64,000 nucleotides of DNA from Escherichia coli (GTDB taxonomy: Bacteria; Pseudomonadota; Gammaproteobacteria; Enterobacterales; Enterobacteriaceae). The notes under the pieces were generated by a model that was not told the DNA's origin, ran no database searches, and saw only the letters and a program-made list of their open reading frames with translations. The position numbers were made by a program, and so were the translations under genes. Positions 1,017-61,467 of this stretch are shown in pieces (position 1 is the stretch's first letter; the number at the start of each line of letters is the position of its first letter). The DNA lies in assembly GCF_002854065.1 (NCBI RefSeq), contig NZ_CP024147.1, one strand, 5' to 3'.

Positions 1017-1604
1017 ATGTATCGGATAGTTCTGGGGAAAGTTTCGACCTTAAGCGCAGCTCCACTGCCACCGGGTTTACGCGAGCAAGCACCGCAAGGT
1101 CCACGACGCGAACGCTGGCTGGCGGGGCGTGCATTGCTTTCGCACACGCTTTCCCCGCTACCGGAGATCATCTATGGCGAACAAGGCAAACCTGCATTCG
1201 CGCCGGAAACGCCGCTATGGTTCAACTTAAGCCATAGCGGTGACGATATCGCCCTGCTGTTGAGTGATGAAGGCGAAGTCGGCTGCGATATCGAAGTGAT
1301 TCGCCCGCGCGCCAACTGGCGCTGGCTGGCGAACGCCGTGTTCAGCCTCGGGGAACACGCTGAAATGGACGCCGTGCATCCTGATCAGCAACTGGAAATG
1401 TTCTGGCGCATCTGGACGCGCAAAGAAGCCATCGTTAAACAGCGTGGCGGCAGCGCCTGGCAAATCGTCAGCGTAGACAGCACCTATCACTCCTCGCTGT
1501 CAGTCAGCCATTGTCAGCTAGAAAATTTAAGCCTTGCGATCTGCACCCCCACCCCCTTTACGCTCACCGCCGACAGTGTGCAATGGATCGATTCAGTTAA
1601 CTGA
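1017..1604 (+). CDS. acpT: 4-prime-phosphopantetheinyl transferase AcpT
   Basis: ATG at 1017 in frame with ORF 897-1604; product MYRIVLGK...WFNLSHSGD...WTRKEA has PPTase motifs; position immediately upstream of nikA. Confidence 0.85.
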   Translation: MYRIVLGKVSTLSAAPLPPGLREQAPQGPRRERWLAGRALLSHTLSPLPEIIYGEQGKPAFAPETPLWFNLSHSGDDIALLLSDEGEVGCDIEVIRPRANWRWLANAVFSLGEHAEMDAVHPDQQLEMFWRIWTRKEAIVKQRGGSAWQIVSVDSTYHSSLSVSHCQLENLSLAICTPTPFTLTADSVQWIDSVN

Positions 1605-1650
1605 TCCCGCCCACCCGACTGCCCATCTATTGATCCAGAACAGGTAATCA

Positions 1651-1678
1651 GTATGACGAATACTTAAAATCGTCATAC
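1651..1678 (+). promoter_or_regulatory. NikR operator (GTATGA-N16-TCATAC) in nikA promoter
   Basis: Perfect inverted half-sites GTATGA (1651-1656) and TCATAC (1673-1678) separated by 16 nt, about 40 nt upstream of nikA start. Confidence 0.8.
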
Positions 1679-1715
1679 TTATTTCCGCCATCTATTTTAA
1701 TCCATTGGGGTTACC

Positions 1716-3290
1716 ATGCTCTCCACACTCCGCCGCACTCTATTTGCGCTGCTGGCTTGTGCGTCTTTTATCGTCCATGCCGCTGCACCAGATGAAATCA
1801 CCACCGCCTGGCCGGTGAATGTCGGGCCACTAAACCCGCACCTTTACACGCCTAACCAGATGTTCGCCCAGAGCATGGTTTATGAACCGCTGGTGAAATA
1901 TCAGGCTGATGGTTCGGTGATCCCGTGGCTGGCAAAAAGCTGGACTCATTCAGAAGATGGTAAAACCTGGACCTTCACCCTGCGTGATGACGTGAAATTC
2001 TCCAACGGCGAACCGTTTGATGCAGAGGCGGCGGCAGAAAACTTCCGCGCAGTGCTCGATAACCGTCAACGTCACGCCTGGCTGGAGCTGGCAAACCAGA
2101 TTGTTGATGTTAAAGCACTCAGTAAAACAGAGCTGCAAATCACCCTGAAAAGCGCCTACTATCCTTTCCTGCAAGAACTGGCCCTGCCGCGCCCTTTCCG
2201 CTTTATCGCCCCCTCGCAGTTTAAAAACCATGAAACCATGAACGGGATTAAAGCGCCGATTGGCACCGGGCCGTGGGTTTTGCAGGAATCGAAACTGAAT
2301 CAGTACGATGTCTTCGTCCGTAACGAAAACTACTGGGGCGAAAAGCCGGCAATTAAGAAGATCACTTTTAACGTCATCCCGGACCCGACTACCCGCGCGG
2401 TGGCGTTTGAAACTGGCGATATCGACCTGCTGTACGGAAACGAAGGGTTATTACCGCTCGATACCTTCGCCCGCTTTAGCCAGAACCCGGCTTACCACAC
2501 CCAACTGTCACAGCCGATCGAAACCGTGATGCTGGCGCTCAATACCGCCAAAGCCCCCACCAACGAGCTGGCAGTACGTGAAGCTCTTAATTACGCGGTA
2601 AACAAAAAATCGCTGATTGATAACGCGTTATATGGCACCCAGCAGGTCGCCGACACTCTGTTTGCCCCTTCTGTGCCTTACGCTAATCTCGGCCTGAAAC
2701 CGCGCCAGTACGATCCGCAGAAAGCGAAAGCGTTGCTGGAAAAAGCCGGTTGGACGCTGCCTGCGGGCAAAGACATCCGCGAGAAAAATGGTCAGCCGCT
2801 GCGCATTGAACTGTCGTTCATCGGCACCGATGCGTTAAGCAAATCGATGGCGGAAATCATTCAGGCTGATATGCGCCAGATTGGCGCAGATGTCTCGCTG
2901 ATTGGCGAAGAAGAGAGCAGTATCTATGCTCGTCAGCGCGACGGTCGTTTTGGCATGATTTTCCACCGCACCTGGGGCGCGCCATATGATCCACACGCCT
3001 TCCTGAGTTCAATGCGCGTACCGTCACACGCTGACTTCCAGGCACAGCAAGGATTAGCCGACAAACCGCTGATTGATAAAGAGATCGGCGAAGTGCTGGC
3101 GACCCATGACGAAACGCAACGTCAGGCGCTGTATCGCGACATTCTGACCCGTCTGCATGACGAGGCGGTTTATCTGCCTATCAGTTACATCTCAATGATG
3201 GTGGTATCAAAACCGGAGCTGGGTAACATCCCCTACGCGCCGATCGCCACCGAAATTCCGTTCGAACAGATTAAACCGGTGAAACCTTAA
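1716..3290 (+). CDS. nikA: nickel ABC transporter periplasmic binding protein NikA
   Basis: 524-aa ORF with signal peptide, first of five-gene ABC operon followed by nikR. Confidence 0.95.
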
Positions 3291-4230
3291 TGTTGCGTTA
3301 CGTATTACGCCGCTTTCTGCTGCTGCTCCCCATGGTGCTCGCCGCCTCGGTGATCATTTTTCTGATGCTGCGTCTCGGTACCGGCGACCCGGCGCTCGAT
3401 TATTTGCGTCTGTCTAACCTGCCGCCGACGCCGGAGATGCTGGCCTCTACCCGCACCATGCTGGGACTGGATCAGCCGCTGTACGTCCAGTACGGTACCT
3501 GGTTGTGGAAGGCGCTGCATCTTGACTTTGGTATCTCATTCGCCAGCCAACGCCCGGTGCTGGACGATATGCTGAACTTCCTGCCCGCCACGCTGGAACT
3601 TGCAGGTGCCGCGCTGGTATTAATTCTGCTCACTTCTGTGCCGCTCGGTATCTGGGCGGCGCGCCATCGCGATCGTCTGCCGGATTTCGCCGTACGTTTC
3701 ATCGCGTTTCTCGGCGTGTCGATGCCCAACTTCTGGCTGGCATTTTTACTGGTGATGGCGTTTTCGGTGTATCTGCAATGGCTACCCGCGATGGGCTACG
3801 GCGGCTGGCAGCACATCATTTTGCCTGCGGTTTCCATTGCCTTTATGTCGCTGGCGATTAACGCACGGCTGCTGCGCGCCAGTATGCTGGACGTCGCCGG
3901 TCAGCGTCACGTCACCTGGGCGCGGCTACGCGGCCTGAATGACAAACAGACCGAGCGTCGTCATATTCTGCGCAATGCCTCGCTGCCGATGATCACCGCC
4001 GTGGGGATGCACATTGGCGAACTGATTGGCGGGACGATGATTATCGAAAACATCTTTGCCTGGCCCGGCGTCGGGCGCTATGCGGTGTCGGCGATTTTTA
4101 ACCGTGACTATCCGGTGATCCAGTGCTTTACGCTGATGATGGTGGTGGTTTTTGTGGTCTGTAATTTGATTGTCGATTTGCTCAACGCCGCGCTGGACCC
4201 ACGCATTCGTCGTCATGAAGGAGCGCACGC

Positions 4231-4234
<4 letters not shown>
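3290..4234 (+). CDS. nikB: nickel ABC transporter permease NikB
   Basis: 314-aa polytopic permease, start overlaps nikA stop. Confidence 0.95.
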
Positions 4235-7038
<2,804 letters not shown>

Positions 7039-7157: not shown

Positions 7158-7517
7158 TTATAAATGATTCAAACGCTCATTCAGTGTTTCAATAATATAG
7201 GTATTAACAGAGACTTGTTGCTGCGCAGCCGCATTATTAAGGCGTTCACTCAGCGATTCTGGATAGCGTAACGTAAAGGTCTTAATCTTTTCTGTACGCG
7301 CATACGGCTCAATACCCGCAGCTTTACAATCCTCAAGATACTCTCGCAGAGAAAGTTCCCCTTCTTTTTGCAGCCCCTGAATGCTGTCAGAGACAAAATC
7401 ACAATAACCTGACAAGCCCAGGAATTTGCCACGAAATGCATTCAGTTCTGGCACGTAAGTGATAACAGCAGGTTGCCCGGCAATCTCCATAGAGTTTGGC
7501 GTCTTCAGTTTGATCAT
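7158..7517 (-). CDS. HicB-like antitoxin (RNase H-like N-terminal region plus C-terminal ribbon-helix-helix)
   Basis: 119-aa ORF, 4-nt overlap with upstream HicA-like gene; C-terminal SLSERLNNAAAQQQVSVNTYIIETLNERL resembles an RHH DNA-binding tail. Confidence 0.55.
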   Translation of the reverse strand: MIKLKTPNSMEIAGQPAVITYVPELNAFRGKFLGLSGYCDFVSDSIQGLQKEGELSLREYLEDCKAAGIEPYARTEKIKTFTLRYPESLSERLNNAAAQQQVSVNTYIIETLNERLNHL

Positions 7518-7789
7518 GGTTTTACCCCTATACTTAGTAACCAGTCACGCACGCTTTCTACAGCGCCTTTGTCGGTATCTGGCGACGGATGAGGCCGATG
7601 GAAACACGCAACGCTCATATTTAGTATGAACTTACAACGCGAACCTCTTCCTTCCTTAATTTCTCCGCCTAATGCTTTAACCAGTGACTCTATATCAGAC
7701 CACTTGATCCCTTGAGGAACAGGAGATTTAAATATTTGATCCAATGTATTTTTTTGTTTCTTCCGTAAAGCCTGTACCTTGGTTCTCAT
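7514..7789 (-). CDS. HicA-like mRNA interferase toxin
   Basis: 91-aa basic ORF; pattern LGGEIKEGRGSRCKF...FHRPHP...DKGAVESV matches the HicA G-x-GSH...HP signature; toxin-first gene order typical of hicAB. Confidence 0.55.
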   Translation of the reverse strand: MRTKVQALRKKQKNTLDQIFKSPVPQGIKWSDIESLVKALGGEIKEGRGSRCKFILNMSVACFHRPHPSPDTDKGAVESVRDWLLSIGVKP

Positions 7790-29683: not shown

Positions 29684-29713
29684 AAAACTGGCCGTAACAA
29701 GCCAGTTTTTTCT
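29684..29713 (+). terminator. gor rho-independent terminator
   Basis: AAAACTGGC / GCCAGTTTT stem with 8-nt loop then T-run. Confidence 0.6.
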
Positions 29714-55013: not shown

Positions 55014-55738
55014 CTCAGTTATAACACAATACGATTTACAATAGATAGTTTCGCGATGATAAGCATTACTGCGTACCGTGAATATCCTACGTTATACAGG
55101 GTTACGGGTAAAAACTATCGGGTCTGCGGTGAGACATGTCATTTTCATCGGTACATCCCCCGTTAAAGGGGAAATTATCTTTCCGGTCTTCATTTTCTTA
55201 ATAAAGTCCAATTTTTGCTCAGTGTCATCCTGGTATCTCTTTCATTTCTGATTATCCCACACAGAGGATTCAGCCAGAAAAGTACATTTTTCAGTTTCTA
55301 TCCCCTCACTCCGGCTCCTCCCCTTTCAACACTGATTTCGGGAAAACAAGCATGCGCCTAAAAAACAATCAAAACAGTCCGTATAAGTTACTTAGGTTGT
55401 CTGCTACTACAATCCCCTACCTTCTCAGTCAGTTGTTTATGGACTGACAGGAAGTAAAAAAGCCTATTAAAAAGAGCAAAAATAAGCAGCTAAACAAACA
55501 GGAAGCCTCTCAATCAAATGATAGTATTCCGAAATCAGCAGTTCAGCATGTAATAGGTACACGAGGGAGTTATGGTCTCTAATGAGTCGAGTTCACCAAG
55601 CACAAGAAGGATGGAAATTGCCGGACACCAAACTCTGGAAAAGTCCCATCCTGCCCAGAAGCCTTCCCCCACAAGGCTTTCCAGTTTTTCTACAGTTAAA
55701 TCGTGTATGGGTACTGCGTGACCATGCGTTAAATGTTA

Positions 55739-55769
55739 AAGGGCTAAGAGTAGTGTGCTCTTAGCCCTT
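55739..55769 (-). terminator. hairpin downstream of dinQ
   Basis: AAGGGCTAAGAG tagtgtg CTCTTAGCCCTT. Confidence 0.4.
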
Positions 55770-55785
55770 AATTACGTTTCCGCTA

Positions 55786-55869
55786 TCAGTTCAGAAGCTG
55801 AAGCAGAAAGCGGATCAGTTCCAGCAGCGCAATTAACGCCCCAAGAACGATGATTGCTTTATCAATCAC
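55786..55869 (-). CDS. dinQ: DinQ small membrane toxin (27-aa peptide; longer in-frame ATG at 55914)
   Basis: Minus-strand translation gives VIDKAIIVLGALIALLELIRFLLQLLN-stop from GTG 55869; below the size cutoff of the ORF track. Confidence 0.75.
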   Translation of the reverse strand: MIDKAIIVLGALIALLELIRFLLQLLN

Positions 55870-55929
55870 CCGTTTTCTCCATGCGATGGAGTGAGAATGC
55901 ATCCGCTTACTCATCCATTGCCTGTCACG

Positions 55930-56020
55930 GCGCATGCCCTATTGTTAGATAATGGCATTCTCACTCCGGCCAGAGCATCAGTTAACGGCACCACCCGTAC
56001 CACTGATCAGGACTTTGAAA
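55930..56020 (+). ncRNA. agrA: agrA-like antisense region overlapping the dinQ 5-prime leader (approximate bounds)
   Basis: 33-nt core GTTAGATAATGGCATTCTCACTCCGGCCAGAGC (55944-55976), repeated 199 bp downstream; part is reverse-complementary to the dinQ leader segment GGAGTGAGAATGC (55888-55900). Confidence 0.4.
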
Positions 56021-56062
56021 GCGTTTATGCGCATTGCCAGAGTGAAAATGCCTCAGAGCTAA

Positions 56063-56078
56063 CTGGATAATCATACAG
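56063..56078 (-). promoter_or_regulatory. candidate LexA box (CTGT-N8-CCAG) for dinQ
   Basis: Minus-strand CTGTATGATTATCCAG about 150 nt upstream of the longer dinQ start. Confidence 0.35.
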
Positions 56079-56129
56079 TATATTCAGGTTATAAAACCAG
56101 CATGTCCTTGCAATAGTTTCAGTATGGTA

Positions 56130-56227
56130 TTAGCATTGATGCGTTAGATGATGGCATTCTCACTCCAGCCAGAGCCACCAACTCAGGGCTGGAAAGTAAA
56201 AAAACCGACGCAAAGTCGGTTTTTTTA
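56130..56227 (+). ncRNA. agrB: agrB-like small RNA with intrinsic terminator (approximate bounds)
   Basis: Second copy of the 33-nt core (56143-56175, 31/33 identical) followed by ACCGAC gcaaa GTCGGT hairpin and T-run (56197-56227). Confidence 0.4.
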
Positions 56228-56334
56228 CGTCCTGATTCAGACCTCCTTTCAAATGAATAGCCAACTCAAAATTCACACCTATTACCTTCCTCTGCACATA
56301 CGCATTCGTTAAACCATATATGTTTTTGACTTAT

Positions 56335-56391
56335 CCGCTTTGGTTTGTAACGCTGGTGGCGCTGGCGCTACGTCTCTCTTTCACTTTGTAA
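56335..56391 (+). pseudogene. arsB: arsB 3-prime remnant (last about 17 codons)
   Basis: ...PLWFVTLVALALRLSFTL-stop closely matches the C-terminus of the intact island ArsB; no upstream arsB sequence present. Confidence 0.6.
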
Positions 56392-56403
56392 TGAGATAAT
56401 GAT

Positions 56404-56772
56404 ATGAGCAACATTACCATTTATCACAACCCGGCCTGCGGCACGTCGCGTAATACGCTGGAGATGATCCGCAACAGCGGCACAGAACCGACCATTATCC
56501 ATTATCTGGAAACTCCGCCAACGCGCGATGAACTGGTCAAACTCATTGCCGATATGGGGATTTCCGTACGCGCGCTGCTGCGTAAAAACGTCGAGCCGTA
56601 TGAGGAACTGGGTCTTGCAGAAGATAAATTTACTGACGATCGGTTAATTGATTTTATGCTGCAACATCCTATCCTGATTAACCGTCCGATTGTGGTGACG
56701 CCGCTGGGAACTCGCCTATGCCGCCCCTCGGAAGTGGTGCTGGAAATTCTGCCAGATGCGCAAAAAGGCGCG
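56404..56772 (+). pseudogene. arsC: arsC truncated at about codon 123 by IS1
   Basis: MSNITIYHNPACGTSRN... reads into the IS1 terminal repeat at 56773; differs from the island arsC at several residues. Confidence 0.8.
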
Positions 56773-56787
56773 GGTAATGACTCCAAC

Positions 56788-57291
56788 TTATTGATAGTGT
56801 TTTATGTTCAGATAATGCCCGATGACTTTGTCATGCAGCTCCACCGATTTTGAGAACGACAGCGACTTCCGTCCCAGCCGTGCCAGGTGCTGCCTCAGAT
56901 TCAGGTTATGCCGCTCAATTCGCTGCGTATATCGCTTGCTGATTACGTGCAGCTTTCCCTTCAGGCGGGATTCATACAGCGGCCAGCCATCCGTCATCCA
57001 TATCACCACGTCAAAGGGTGACAGCAGGCTCATAAGACGCCCCAGCGTCGCCATAGTGCGTTCACCGAATACGTGCGCAACAACCGTCTTCCGGAGCCTG
57101 TCATACGCGTAAAACAGCCAGCGCTGGCGCGATTTAGCCCCGACGTATCCCCACTGTTCGTCCATTTCCGCGCAGACGATGACGTCACTGCCCGGCTGTA
57201 TGCGCGAGGTTACCGACTGCGGCCTGAGTTTTTTAAATGGCGGAAAATCGTGTTGAGGCCAACGCCCATAATGCGGGCGGTTGCCCGGCAT
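56788..57291 (-). CDS. insB: IS1 InsB
   Basis: 167-aa ORF inside IS1. Confidence 0.85.
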
Positions 57292-57485
57292 CCAACGCCA
57301 TTCATGGCCATATCAATGATTTTCTGGTGCGTACCGGGTTGAGAAGCGGTGTAAGTGAACTGCAGTTGCCATGTTTTACGGCAGTGAGAGCAGAGATAGC
57401 GCTGATGTCCGGCAGTGCTTTTGCCGTTACGCACCACCCCGTCAGTAGCTGAACAGGAGGGACAGCTGATAGAAACAGAAGCCAC
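57210..57485 (-). CDS. insA: IS1 InsA
   Basis: 91-aa zinc-finger/[28 protein letters not shown]. Confidence 0.85.
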
Positions 57486-57554
57486 TGGAGCACCTCAAAA
57501 ACACCATCATACACTAAATCAGTAAGTTGGCAGCATCACCTTACCAGGGATACG

Positions 57555-58058
57555 ATGTTCTTCACCGCGATGAAAAACATTCTGAGTAAAGGTAATGTCG
57601 TTCATATACAGAACGAAGAAGAGATCGACGTAATGTTGCATCAGAATGCCTTCGTCATTATTGATACATTAATGAATAATGTATTTCATTCTAATTTTCT
57701 CACTCAAATCGAACGATTAAAACCTGTCCATGTCATTATTTTCTCCCCCTTTAATATTAAACGCTGCCTGGGGAAAGTGCCGGTGACCTTTGTTCCGCGG
57801 ACTATCACTATCATTGATTTTGTCGCACTCATCAATGGCAGTTACTGCTCCGTGCCTGAAGCGAATGTGTCACTTTCGCGCAAGCAACATCAGGTTCTGA
57901 GCTGCATTGCGAATCAAATGACAACGGAAGATATTCTGGAGAAACTGAAAATATCGCTAAAAACGTTCTACTGCCATAAACACAATATCATGATGATCCT
58001 CAATCTTAAGCGGATCAATGAGCTGGTACGCCATCAGCATATTGATTATCTGGTGTGA
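57555..58058 (+). CDS. dctR: LuxR-family regulator DctR (YhiF)-like, 5-prime end and promoter replaced by IS1
   Basis: C-terminal LuxR HTH; reading frame is open back into the IS1 end; first in-frame ATG at 57555. Confidence 0.6.
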   Translation: MFFTAMKNILSKGNVVHIQNEEEIDVMLHQNAFVIIDTLMNNVFHSNFLTQIERLKPVHVIIFSPFNIKRCLGKVPVTFVPRTITIIDFVALINGSYCSVPEANVSLSRKQHQVLSCIANQMTTEDILEKLKISLKTFYCHKHNIMMILNLKRINELVRHQHIDYLV

Positions 58059-59195: not shown

Positions 59196-61178
59196 TTACC
59201 ATTGATAACTCACGAAAATTTTTCCGTTACGACCATCCTGTGGGATGCCTTGCGGCGACCAGTACTCTTTGTCGAAAGCGTTACCCAACACCAAAGTAGT
59301 GGTCATACCTTTGAGCGCCTGTTGTCCTTGATAACTGACGTAGAAATCATTCACGCCATAGCCTGGTTGTTTGCTGTAACTGCTGCTGATATGTGTTGAG
59401 CGATCGGCAAACGTACCAACCCACCCAACAGAGAAGCCACTGTGAGCGATCGGAATATTCAGAGTGCTGGTAACAGTATCCGGGTTAATGCTGGAGATGT
59501 ATTCGCCGGTATCGGTGTCTTTGCCGCGGGTACGGTTATAGGCCACATCAAGGCTAAACAGATCAGTGGTATATTTCGTCATCACATCCCAGCCCCAGAT
59601 TTTGGCGTTCGGGACGTTATACGACATAGTCGTCGCCGCCGCGAAATCGACGGTCGTGGAGATGTAATCCTTCGCTTTGGTATCAAAGTAGCTGGCTTTA
59701 AATTCCAGAGCATCATTGGACAACATCAGGTCATCAAAACGCAGCCCAAAACCGTACTCCTGAGTTTCGTTAGTTTCCGGACGTAAGTTCGGGTTTGGCA
59801 CCCAATAGTTGGTATAGAAGCGACCAATCGAGAAGTGCTTAGAATCGTTATACATTTCGCCCATCGTCGGGGCGCGGAATGCCTGGGCATATGAGCCAAA
59901 TAACATCAGCCAGTTAGTCGGATTGATAGTCATCCCCGCACGAGATGACCATTTGTCGGCATCAACATCTTTGTAACCGTCACTGCTACCGCGATAACTG
60001 TCATAGCGGGTTCCGCCAAGCAGGGTAATCGGCAGATCGCGTAAGGTGATCTCATCCTGTAGCCAGCCGGAGCTAAAATCGATTTTTGCTTGCGGGAAGC
60101 CCGTCGTCGCGCCGCCCGGATGTTGTTCCTGACGATAATACTCACCGCCATATGTCAGTAAGTGAGAAGCGAAACTGTCGGCAAAGAGAGTGGAACGGTT
60201 CTCCAGCCTGGCTCCTTTTGTTATCTGTTCACGATACTCGCCGGAACTCCCCGTGTTTTGCGCATTAATACGGACTTCCGACCAATAAATTTTTGCATCT
60301 GCATTTAACCAGTCGTTGCCCTGCGGGGCGAGTTTATAAGAAAGCTGCGCATCGCGTTGAATTGTTGAACGATCAACCATCGGGTTGCTGCTTTCAGAAG
60401 CCTCAACGGTCTGCGGATTTTTTGGTTCACGCGCGTCGTTGTTGTAGTAACGCACTAAACCGCTCAGAGACTGGGCTGAATCAATTTGCCAGGTCCCTTT
60501 CGCCAGCATGTTATTAATGGACTCGTCATTCGGCGCGGTTTCACCATTGCTTTGCCGTAAATCACCCCGATCGCGACTGGACCAGGCCACAATACCATCC
60601 AGATTTTCAGTTCGCCCAAACGCGCTCGCGCCTAATCCCAGGCTATGGTCCCCCGTACCGCCAGTACCAAAGACACGAAAACCACTGCTTTGTCCTTCCT
60701 GCAATAAATCTTTTGCATCGACCGTATCGTAGGAGATCACTCCACCCAGCGCGCCACTGCCATACAGTAATGCTGAAGGTCCGCGAACAATCTCAACACG
60801 CTTGATCAGCGCCGGATCGAGAAAAGTGCCATTCAGGTGTCCGGTATCCGTTCCCTGGCGAACACCATCGATAAGAACCAGCACGCCGCGATGATCATAG
60901 CCACGCATATTTACATCCTGACCGTTGGTTCGTCCGGTACCATCCAGAGTAATTCCAGGAACATGACGCAGCAGATCGGTGGCTGAAGTAGCCGTTTGAT
61001 TTTCAGGAGCGGAAGTGTCGATGACGCTGACCATCATAGGCGTTTCGAAGGAACTACGGGCATTCCCCGTTGCCGTAACGGTCATGGTTTCAGTAGCAAA
61101 AGCAAACGTTGGCAAGGTGGCAGAAACAGCCAAGGCCAACAAACTCAAACGCAACGAGGTAAATTGCGGACGTGACAT
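59196..61178 (-). CDS. chuA: TonB-dependent outer-membrane heme receptor ChuA
   Basis: 660 aa; signal peptide, TonB box ETMTVTA, C-terminal ...FVSYQW. Confidence 0.9.
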   Translation of the reverse strand: MSRPQFTSLRLSLLALAVSATLPTFAFATETMTVTATGNARSSFETPMMVSVIDTSAPENQTATSATDLLRHVPGITLDGTGRTNGQDVNMRGYDHRGVLVLIDGVRQGTDTGHLNGTFLDPALIKRVEIVRGPSALLYGSGALGGVISYDTVDAKDLLQEGQSSGFRVFGTGGTGDHSLGLGASAFGRTENLDGIVAWSSRDRGDLRQSNGETAPNDESINNMLAKGTWQIDSAQSLSGLVRYYNNDAREPKNPQTVEASESSNPMVDRSTIQRDAQLSYKLAPQGNDWLNADAKIYWSEVRINAQNTGSSGEYREQITKGARLENRSTLFADSFASHLLTYGGEYYRQEQHPGGATTGFPQAKIDFSSGWLQDEITLRDLPITLLGGTRYDSYRGSSDGYKDVDADKWSSRAGMTINPTNWLMLFGSYAQAFRAPTMGEMYNDSKHFSIGRFYTNYWVPNPNLRPETNETQEYGFGLRFDDLMLSNDALEFKASYFDTKAKDYISTTVDFAAATTMSYNVPNAKIWGWDVMTKYTTDLFSLDVAYNRTRGKDTDTGEYISSINPDTVTSTLNIPIAHSGFSVGWVGTFADRSTHISSSYSKQPGYGVNDFYVSYQGQQALKGMTTTLVLGNAFDKEYWSPQGIPQDGRNGKIFVSYQW

Positions 61179-61467
61179 AGCGATTCTCCATGAGGAAAAT
61201 AAAAAATGCTGGCTGCCTGGGTTAATACCGGGGTGGCTGGCGAAAAATAAATTTATTTAAAATTCAGAGCGATAATATTCGCCGGGTGAGTTTACAGGCG
61301 TTTATATCCCATGAAATTGCCTGATAACTCGGCAATTACGCAAAAGCACGCCCTCTTTGTCAGGCAAAACGATATGCCCCATCAGGAGTGAAGAGAGCTG
61401 TGCGTTATCCCTTGCAAATGCTATGGTTTTGTTATCCATATGGTCGTGTTTTGTTAAATGCAAACGT

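Follow-up and report, generated by a model that had tools for sequence, protein, structure and literature searches.

The nik locus and its surroundings

The window, by which we mean the whole 64-kb stretch of E. coli DNA analyzed here, carries the nickel import genes nikABCDE and the repressor gene nikR, with acpT as their upstream neighbor (Table 1). The open reading frames that follow the acpT-nikA intergenic region encode proteins of 524, 314, 277, 254, 268, and 133 amino acids. In a profile search, the NCBIfam equivalog models for NikA, NikB, NikC, NikD, NikE, and NikR all scored far above their curated cutoffs, and the RefSeq annotation of the same DNA gives the same gene names. All five transporter genes are full length, and none of the nik genes carries a pseudogene flag. 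The window is colinear with E. coli strain CUWW06 (NZ_CP182139.1) and identical to it in the compared stretches, with the annotation reproducing the open reading frame coordinates base for base. Within the intergenic region, a palindromic operator begins 46 bp past the acpT stop codon and lies 38 bp from the start codon of nikA, the first gene under its control. The last gene, nikR, is placed ∼5 kb downstream of the operator and 5 bp past the nikE stop codon.

Table 1. Positions of the nik genes and of the elements of the nikA promoter in the window
Feature	Position	Strand	Basis or remark
acpT, upstream neighbor	1017-1604	+	NF007676 at 396 bits; annotation
FNR-like box TTGATccagAACAG, putative class II activator site of the nikA promoter	1630-1643	+	8/10 consensus positions
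Left arm of perfect 10-bp inverted repeat, AGTATGACGA	1650-1659	.	includes half-site GTATGA (1651-1656)
NikR operator GTATGA-N16-TCATAC, 28-bp dyad	1651-1678	.	exact, unique match; identical in K-12 MG1655
Inferred -10 hexamer TAAAAT, within the operator spacer	1665-1670	+	-12 to -7 by the FNR distance of -40.5
Right arm of perfect 10-bp inverted repeat, TCGTCATACT	1670-1679	.	includes half-site TCATAC (1673-1678)
Inferred nikA transcription start (+1)	1677	+	published FNR distance of -40.5 and box position
nikA, periplasmic nickel-binding protein, 524 aa	1716-3290	+	TIGR02294 at 840 bits (cutoff, 393); RefSeq annotation
nikB, nikC, nikD, nikE (permeases and ATPases), full length	3290-6631	+	NCBIfam equivalogs above cutoff; K-12 lengths
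nikR, Ni(II)-responsive ribbon-helix-helix repressor	6637-7038	+	133/133 identical to K-12 NikR

Several other features of the window were observed. At its upstream end (1 to 1604), a beta-ketoacyl-ACP synthase gene, the last gene of its cluster, lies upstream of acpT; in strain ECNB21-M121 the same cluster encodes an acyl carrier protein, an AMP-binding protein, dehydratases, a glycosyltransferase, an MMPL transporter, a LolA-like protein, and FabG2. A hicA/hicB toxin-antitoxin pair (7158 to 7789) is located downstream of nikR. Between gorA and dinQ, positions 29700 to 55700 hold a segment of ∼26 kb that is missing from the otherwise closest strain and was found whole in 1 of the 5,426 complete E. 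coli genomes (CUWW06, from wastewater in Thailand), with parts of it being ∼93% identical to E. coli plasmids. Its annotation includes a site-specific integrase, IS2, an arsR-D-A-B-C operon, an AAA ATPase, a DEAD/DEAH helicase, and a second arsD/arsA/arsH set with an ECF-type sigma factor. Beside this island, at 55700 to 57600, the native chromosomal ars locus appears rearranged: compared with strain ECNB21-M121, it lacks arsR and arsB and retains arsC, next to which lies an IS1B copy; the annotation gives the regulator gene that follows (at the dctR position) as truncated at its N terminus, and slp is absent. Two Rfam matches scored above the gathering threshold, namely, the AgrB antisense RNA in the dinQ region (56144 to 56228, plus strand; 103 bits) and the shuA/chuA 5′-UTR RNA thermometer upstream of chuA in the heme uptake cluster (61176 to 61207, minus strand; 60.1 bits).

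A single exact NikR operator in the nikA promoter

Positions 1651 to 1678 read GTATGACGAATACTTAAAATCGTCATAC and match GTATGA-N16-TCATAC exactly, with both half-sites intact, in inverted orientation, and spaced by 16 bp. In a pattern search of both strands, this was the only match in the 64 kb; the pattern was absent from all 100 dinucleotide-preserving shuffles of the window, and a pattern with 12 fixed bases would, by simple expectation, occur ∼0.004 times in 64 kb. When up to three mismatches were allowed, the window contained 32 sites versus 22.8 ± 5.0 expected, but no second operator was found in the window, as all other sites of this set carry at least two mismatches and occur at chance level. 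The original prediction that the palindrome stands at the nikA promoter with perfect half-sites is thus borne out by an exact and unique match. The dyad symmetry even exceeds the hexamers considered in that prediction, since the arms are perfect over 10 bp; they flank a 10-bp center, and weaker complementarity extends out to 1643 to 1686.

This palindrome is well characterized in the literature. Ni(II)-NikR binds GTATGA-N16-TCATAC of the nikABCDE promoter with nanomolar affinity (PMC7055735), and nikABCDE has been described as the single target of E. coli NikR, bound there at a well-defined palindrome (PMC3177205). Comparison with the characterized nikA promoter, which had been proposed along with the prediction as a way to check it, showed that the operator and its flanks, out to the FNR box on one side and the nikA ATG on the other, are identical to those of K-12 MG1655, for whose sequence nickel-dependent NikR binding and repression in vivo are established in the literature (PMC7055735, PMC3177205). 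More precisely, in an alignment with K-12 MG1655 (NC_000913.3), the window is identical from position 1609 to beyond the nikA start codon, and the intergenic regions differ only by an additional C of the window, in a run of C residues at ∼1605 to 1608 just past the acpT stop codon.

Conservation within E. coli

A 501-bp query across the site matched 5,425 of the 5,426 complete E. coli genomes, always in the annotated setting of acpT and nikA. The 96-bp promoter segment between the FNR box and the nikA ATG, both included, was likewise present in 5,425 of the 5,426 genomes, with 4,916 of them matching at 99% identity or more. A 30-bp query centered on the operator, which seeds only on an exact 28-mer, recovered the exact operator in 5,299 genomes, all at 100% identity. 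This leaves ∼126 of the 5,425 genomes without an exact 28-mer across the operator; these remaining genomes were matched at 95 to 99% identity in a sensitive 40-bp search.

Among three low-ranking promoters that we examined, two carry A1660G, a change of the first base of the central spacer. The half-sites are unchanged in all three, and all three carry changes at 1622, 1629, and 1646, which fall outside the operator. The carriers of A1660G are strains EC21Z-144 and 1424KP, in which it is linked to the changes at 1622, 1629 (a position adjoining the FNR box), and 1646; the combination suggests a distinct promoter haplotype. Generally, the E. coli operator is nearly invariant, and the sampled natural variation avoids its half-sites.

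Occurrence of the palindrome in other species

We scanned 100,044 species-representative genomes for the longer pattern GTATGACG-N12-CGTCATAC, which misses operators with T/A at the seventh position and therefore gives an incomplete cross-species list. The scan returned 67 loci, a number similar to the ∼70 chance matches that a pattern of 16 fixed bases should give in 298 Gb. In a tblastn comparison of the Nik proteins of the window with these loci, about 21 of the 67 matches had a nikA or nikR homologue within ∼200 bp. Such nik-adjoining sites belong to E. coli, E. albertii, E. whittamii, two further Escherichia species, Kosakonia arachidis, about fourteen alphaproteobacteria, and one Gemmatimonadota metagenome-assembled genome. 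Since chance matches would essentially never adjoin nikR, their recurrence there independently supports the identification of the palindrome as a NikR box. The exact 8+12+8 palindrome was seen directly up- or downstream of nikR homologues at loci L008, L015, L017, L020, L034, L039, L041, L064, and L073 as well as at others. The NikR homologues adjoining the alphaproteobacterial boxes are mostly ∼48 to 56% identical to E. coli NikR, with some of those of Hyphomicrobium at only 27 to 29%. The half-sites are unchanged in the other species examined, and the NikR half-site is unusually conserved across classes.

The NikA protein of Kosakonia is 81% identical, yet most of the intergenic region has diverged there, and a single block, extending from the FNR box through the operator, remains conserved. 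Within this block, the TAAAAT hexamer is kept, the spacer carries two substitutions, and the FNR box reads TTGATccagGACAG.

Two Escherichia strains carry insertions between the operator and nikA. In Escherichia sp. MOD1-EC7003 (locus L049, 4025 to 4173), ∼112 bp are inserted between the NikR operator and the nikA start, that is, in the mRNA leader; the insertion is an ERIC/IRU-like repeat dispersed in intergenic regions (median, 8 copies per E. coli genome), and its end, GAAGTATGACGAGTAT, includes the NikR-half-site-like sequence GTATGACG. The insertion in Escherichia sp. E1V33 (locus L055, 3218 to 3688) measures ∼430 bp and contains an 81-bp GC-rich palindromic unit repeated 3.1 times in tandem; beyond the insertion, the right half-site region recurs in a degenerate second copy, aatcgtcGCcatacttatttc.

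The repressor and autoregulation

NikR of the window is identical to K-12 NikR at 133 of 133 residues and, over its full length, to the proteins in PDB entries 1Q5V, 2HZA, 2HZV, and 3OD2, of which 2HZV is the complex of NikR with operator DNA. The nickel ligands of E. coli NikR, defined as H87, H89, and C95 together with H76 (PMC7055735), are all present, as are the potassium-site residues E30, D34, I116, Q118, and V121 listed in the same review (PMC7055735). When bound to DNA, the NikR tetramer is in the cis conformation, in which both of its ribbon-helix-helix domains lie on the same side (PMC7055735).

The original prediction had further stated that nickel-dependent autoregulation of the operon is preserved. 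The first part of this claim stands as a prediction, as the intact operator, NikR, and transporters indicate a preserved nickel control circuit. The term autoregulation, on the other hand, holds only insofar as nikR is cotranscribed from the nikA promoter. Since nikR starts 5 bp after the nikE stop codon, it should be readable from that promoter, and to that extent NikR would regulate itself. A weak constitutive promoter has reportedly been assigned to nikR by De Pina et al. in 1999. A promoter scan of the 3′ end of nikE, just ahead of nikR, revealed nothing consensus-like, which neither supports nor refutes the reported weak promoter.

Promoter geometry and a model of repression

The sequence TTGATccagAACAG is the only FNR-like box of the acpT-nikA intergenic region. 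It has two mismatches to TTGAT-N4-ATCAA, and matches of equal quality are common in the window (64 versus 40.6 expected); its assignment as the FNR site is made because FNR chromatin immunoprecipitation sequencing identified nikABCDE as directly activated by FNR from one site at -40.5 (PMC3688515) and because the box is conserved in Kosakonia. With the center of the box, at 1636.5, set at -40.5, the nikA transcript would start at 1677, and the hexamer at -12 to -7 would be TAAAAT. The operator would then span approximately -26 to +2 of the FNR-dependent promoter and enclose its -10 hexamer, both the +1 and the -10 positions being inferred from this distance. A simple sigma-70 scan of positions 1500 to 1800 found no promoter, as is expected for an activator-dependent promoter that has no -35 hexamer, but it lends the assigned positions no positive support.

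Because the operator encloses the putative -10 hexamer, binding of Ni-NikR should block RNA polymerase, and we propose the following model. Under anaerobiosis without excess nickel, FNR at 1630 to 1643 would activate nikA transcription. Rising cytoplasmic Ni(II) would fill the four square-planar sites of the central tetramerization domain of NikR, each formed by H87, H89, and C95 and by H76 of the neighboring chain. The tetramer has a ribbon-helix-helix dimer at each end; both dimers would then dock on the same face of the DNA, and the beta-ribbon of each would enter the major groove at one half-site, GTATGA or TCATAC, the two being roughly two helical turns apart. NikR bound in this way would exclude RNA polymerase and switch off synthesis of the importer, together with whatever fraction of the nikR mRNA originates at the nikA promoter. 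Sequence, uniqueness, K-12 identity, and conservation enter the model from this analysis, and nickel-dependent binding, structure, and the FNR distance of -40.5 enter it from the literature. The exact +1 and -10 positions, and hence the geometry of occlusion, are deduced by combining the two.

The consensus of the NarL heptamer is TACYYMT. The sequence TACTTAT at 1676 to 1682 matches it perfectly and overlaps both the TCATAC half-site and the putative +1. Such heptamers number 46 in the window versus 37 expected, and comparison of the intergenic regions showed that this one is not conserved in Kosakonia. A 2009 survey counted nikA among the NarL-regulated promoters without a detectable NarL site (PMC2718512). 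TACTTAT may be a candidate site for repression of nikA by nitrate and NarL, although we regard this as doubtful; if true, nickel and nitrate would both act on nikA through one shared stretch of a few base pairs.

Alternative readings of the palindrome

The palindrome might instead, or additionally, form an RNA hairpin serving to terminate read-through from acpT or to insulate against it; the acpT stop codon is only 46 bp upstream. The RNA of positions 1640 to 1692 does fold at -15.6 kcal/mol (z = -5.6 versus shuffles) with a core stem of 10 bp, and UAUUUCC follows the stem. However, any perfect dyad folds well, which makes the z-score uninformative, and the hairpin has an A/U-rich stem, a 10-nt loop, and a short, interrupted run of U residues (UAUUU) in place of the G+C-rich stem, short loop, and immediate U-run of a rho-independent terminator; consistently, a terminator scan of positions 1500 to 1800 found none. 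The alphaproteobacterial loci, where the same palindrome stands directly upstream of nikR in varied gene orientations, also fit a protein-binding site and not a terminator. We thus consider the hairpin reading improbable, with a terminator role being at most secondary to that of the NikR operator.

Even less probable is that the operator is intact but a relic of a circuit that has lost function through another component, such as a defective NikR or transporter. Expression cannot be read from sequence alone, which leaves some room for such a case, but the repressor is identical to the functional K-12 protein at all 133 residues, NikA to NikE are full length, above their equivalog cutoffs, and without pseudogene flags, and the FNR box, -10 hexamer, leader, and start codon are all identical to those of K-12. 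As for a palindrome that arose by chance and has no function, short dyads do arise by chance in general, but nothing else speaks for this reading. It would have to accommodate the absence of the pattern from all 100 shuffles, the identity to the experimentally characterized K-12 operator, the near-invariance in 5,425 genomes, in which only the spacer and flanks vary, the conserved island in the diverged Kosakonia intergenic region, and the recurrence beside nikR across phyla. We give it practically no credence, and the conservation data rule it out.

The palindrome is exact and unique, it stands in the nik locus together with a promoter and a NikR that are identical to those of K-12, and it is conserved. 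For these reasons we conclude that it is almost certainly the textbook NikR operator of nikABCDE-nikR, a site that is already known, and repression through it is predicted for this strain. No observation of this analysis contradicts that conclusion, and annotation of the site as a regulatory feature can be made with confidence. Nickel import supplies [NiFe] hydrogenases under anaerobiosis, and this E. coli isolate appears to keep the standard circuit for its control, a prediction of little importance beyond annotation. The cross-species survey adds modest context in that the 8+12+8 palindrome marks nikR loci in distant proteobacteria.

Comparison with known NikR systems

The closest known system is the nikA operator of K-12, the NikR box said to have been described by Chivers and Sauer in 2000. 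It shares with the window the same 28 bp, the same flanks, the 38-bp distance to the start codon, and the same repressor protein. The wider neighborhoods differ: upstream of acpT, K-12 has yhhT where the window has the acyl carrier/ketosynthase gene cluster, and downstream of nikR, K-12 has rhsB where the window has hicAB.

The alphaproteobacterial NikR boxes (in Bradyrhizobium, Tardiphaga, Pleomorphomonas, Aureimonas, Hyphomicrobium, Defluviicoccus, and others) have the same 8-bp arms, GTATGACG and CGTCATAC, and the same 12-bp spacing, whereas their spacer sequences are unrelated to that of E. coli. Their arrangement is also different. They usually lie 20 to 130 bp upstream of nikR, which amounts to true autoregulation, or between nikR and a transporter gene, and not, as in E. 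coli, before a nikABCDE operon that ends in nikR.

By comparative genomics, the enterobacterial NikR signal has been given as GTATGAT-N13/14-ATCATAC (PMC545781). It has the same architecture as the site in the window, an inverted repeat of 27 to 28 bp with a GTATGA core, but the consensus has T/A at the seventh position, where E. coli, and likewise Kosakonia, has C/G (GTATGAC...GTCATAC). The half-sites of the deltaproteobacterial NikR differ (GTGTTAC-N13/14-GTAACAC [PMC545781]), and H. pylori NikR is pleiotropic, acting both as an activator and as a repressor (PMC3177205). The operators of these two systems are nevertheless two-fold symmetric like that of E. coli, and they are likewise read by a tetramer with two ribbon-helix-helix domains.
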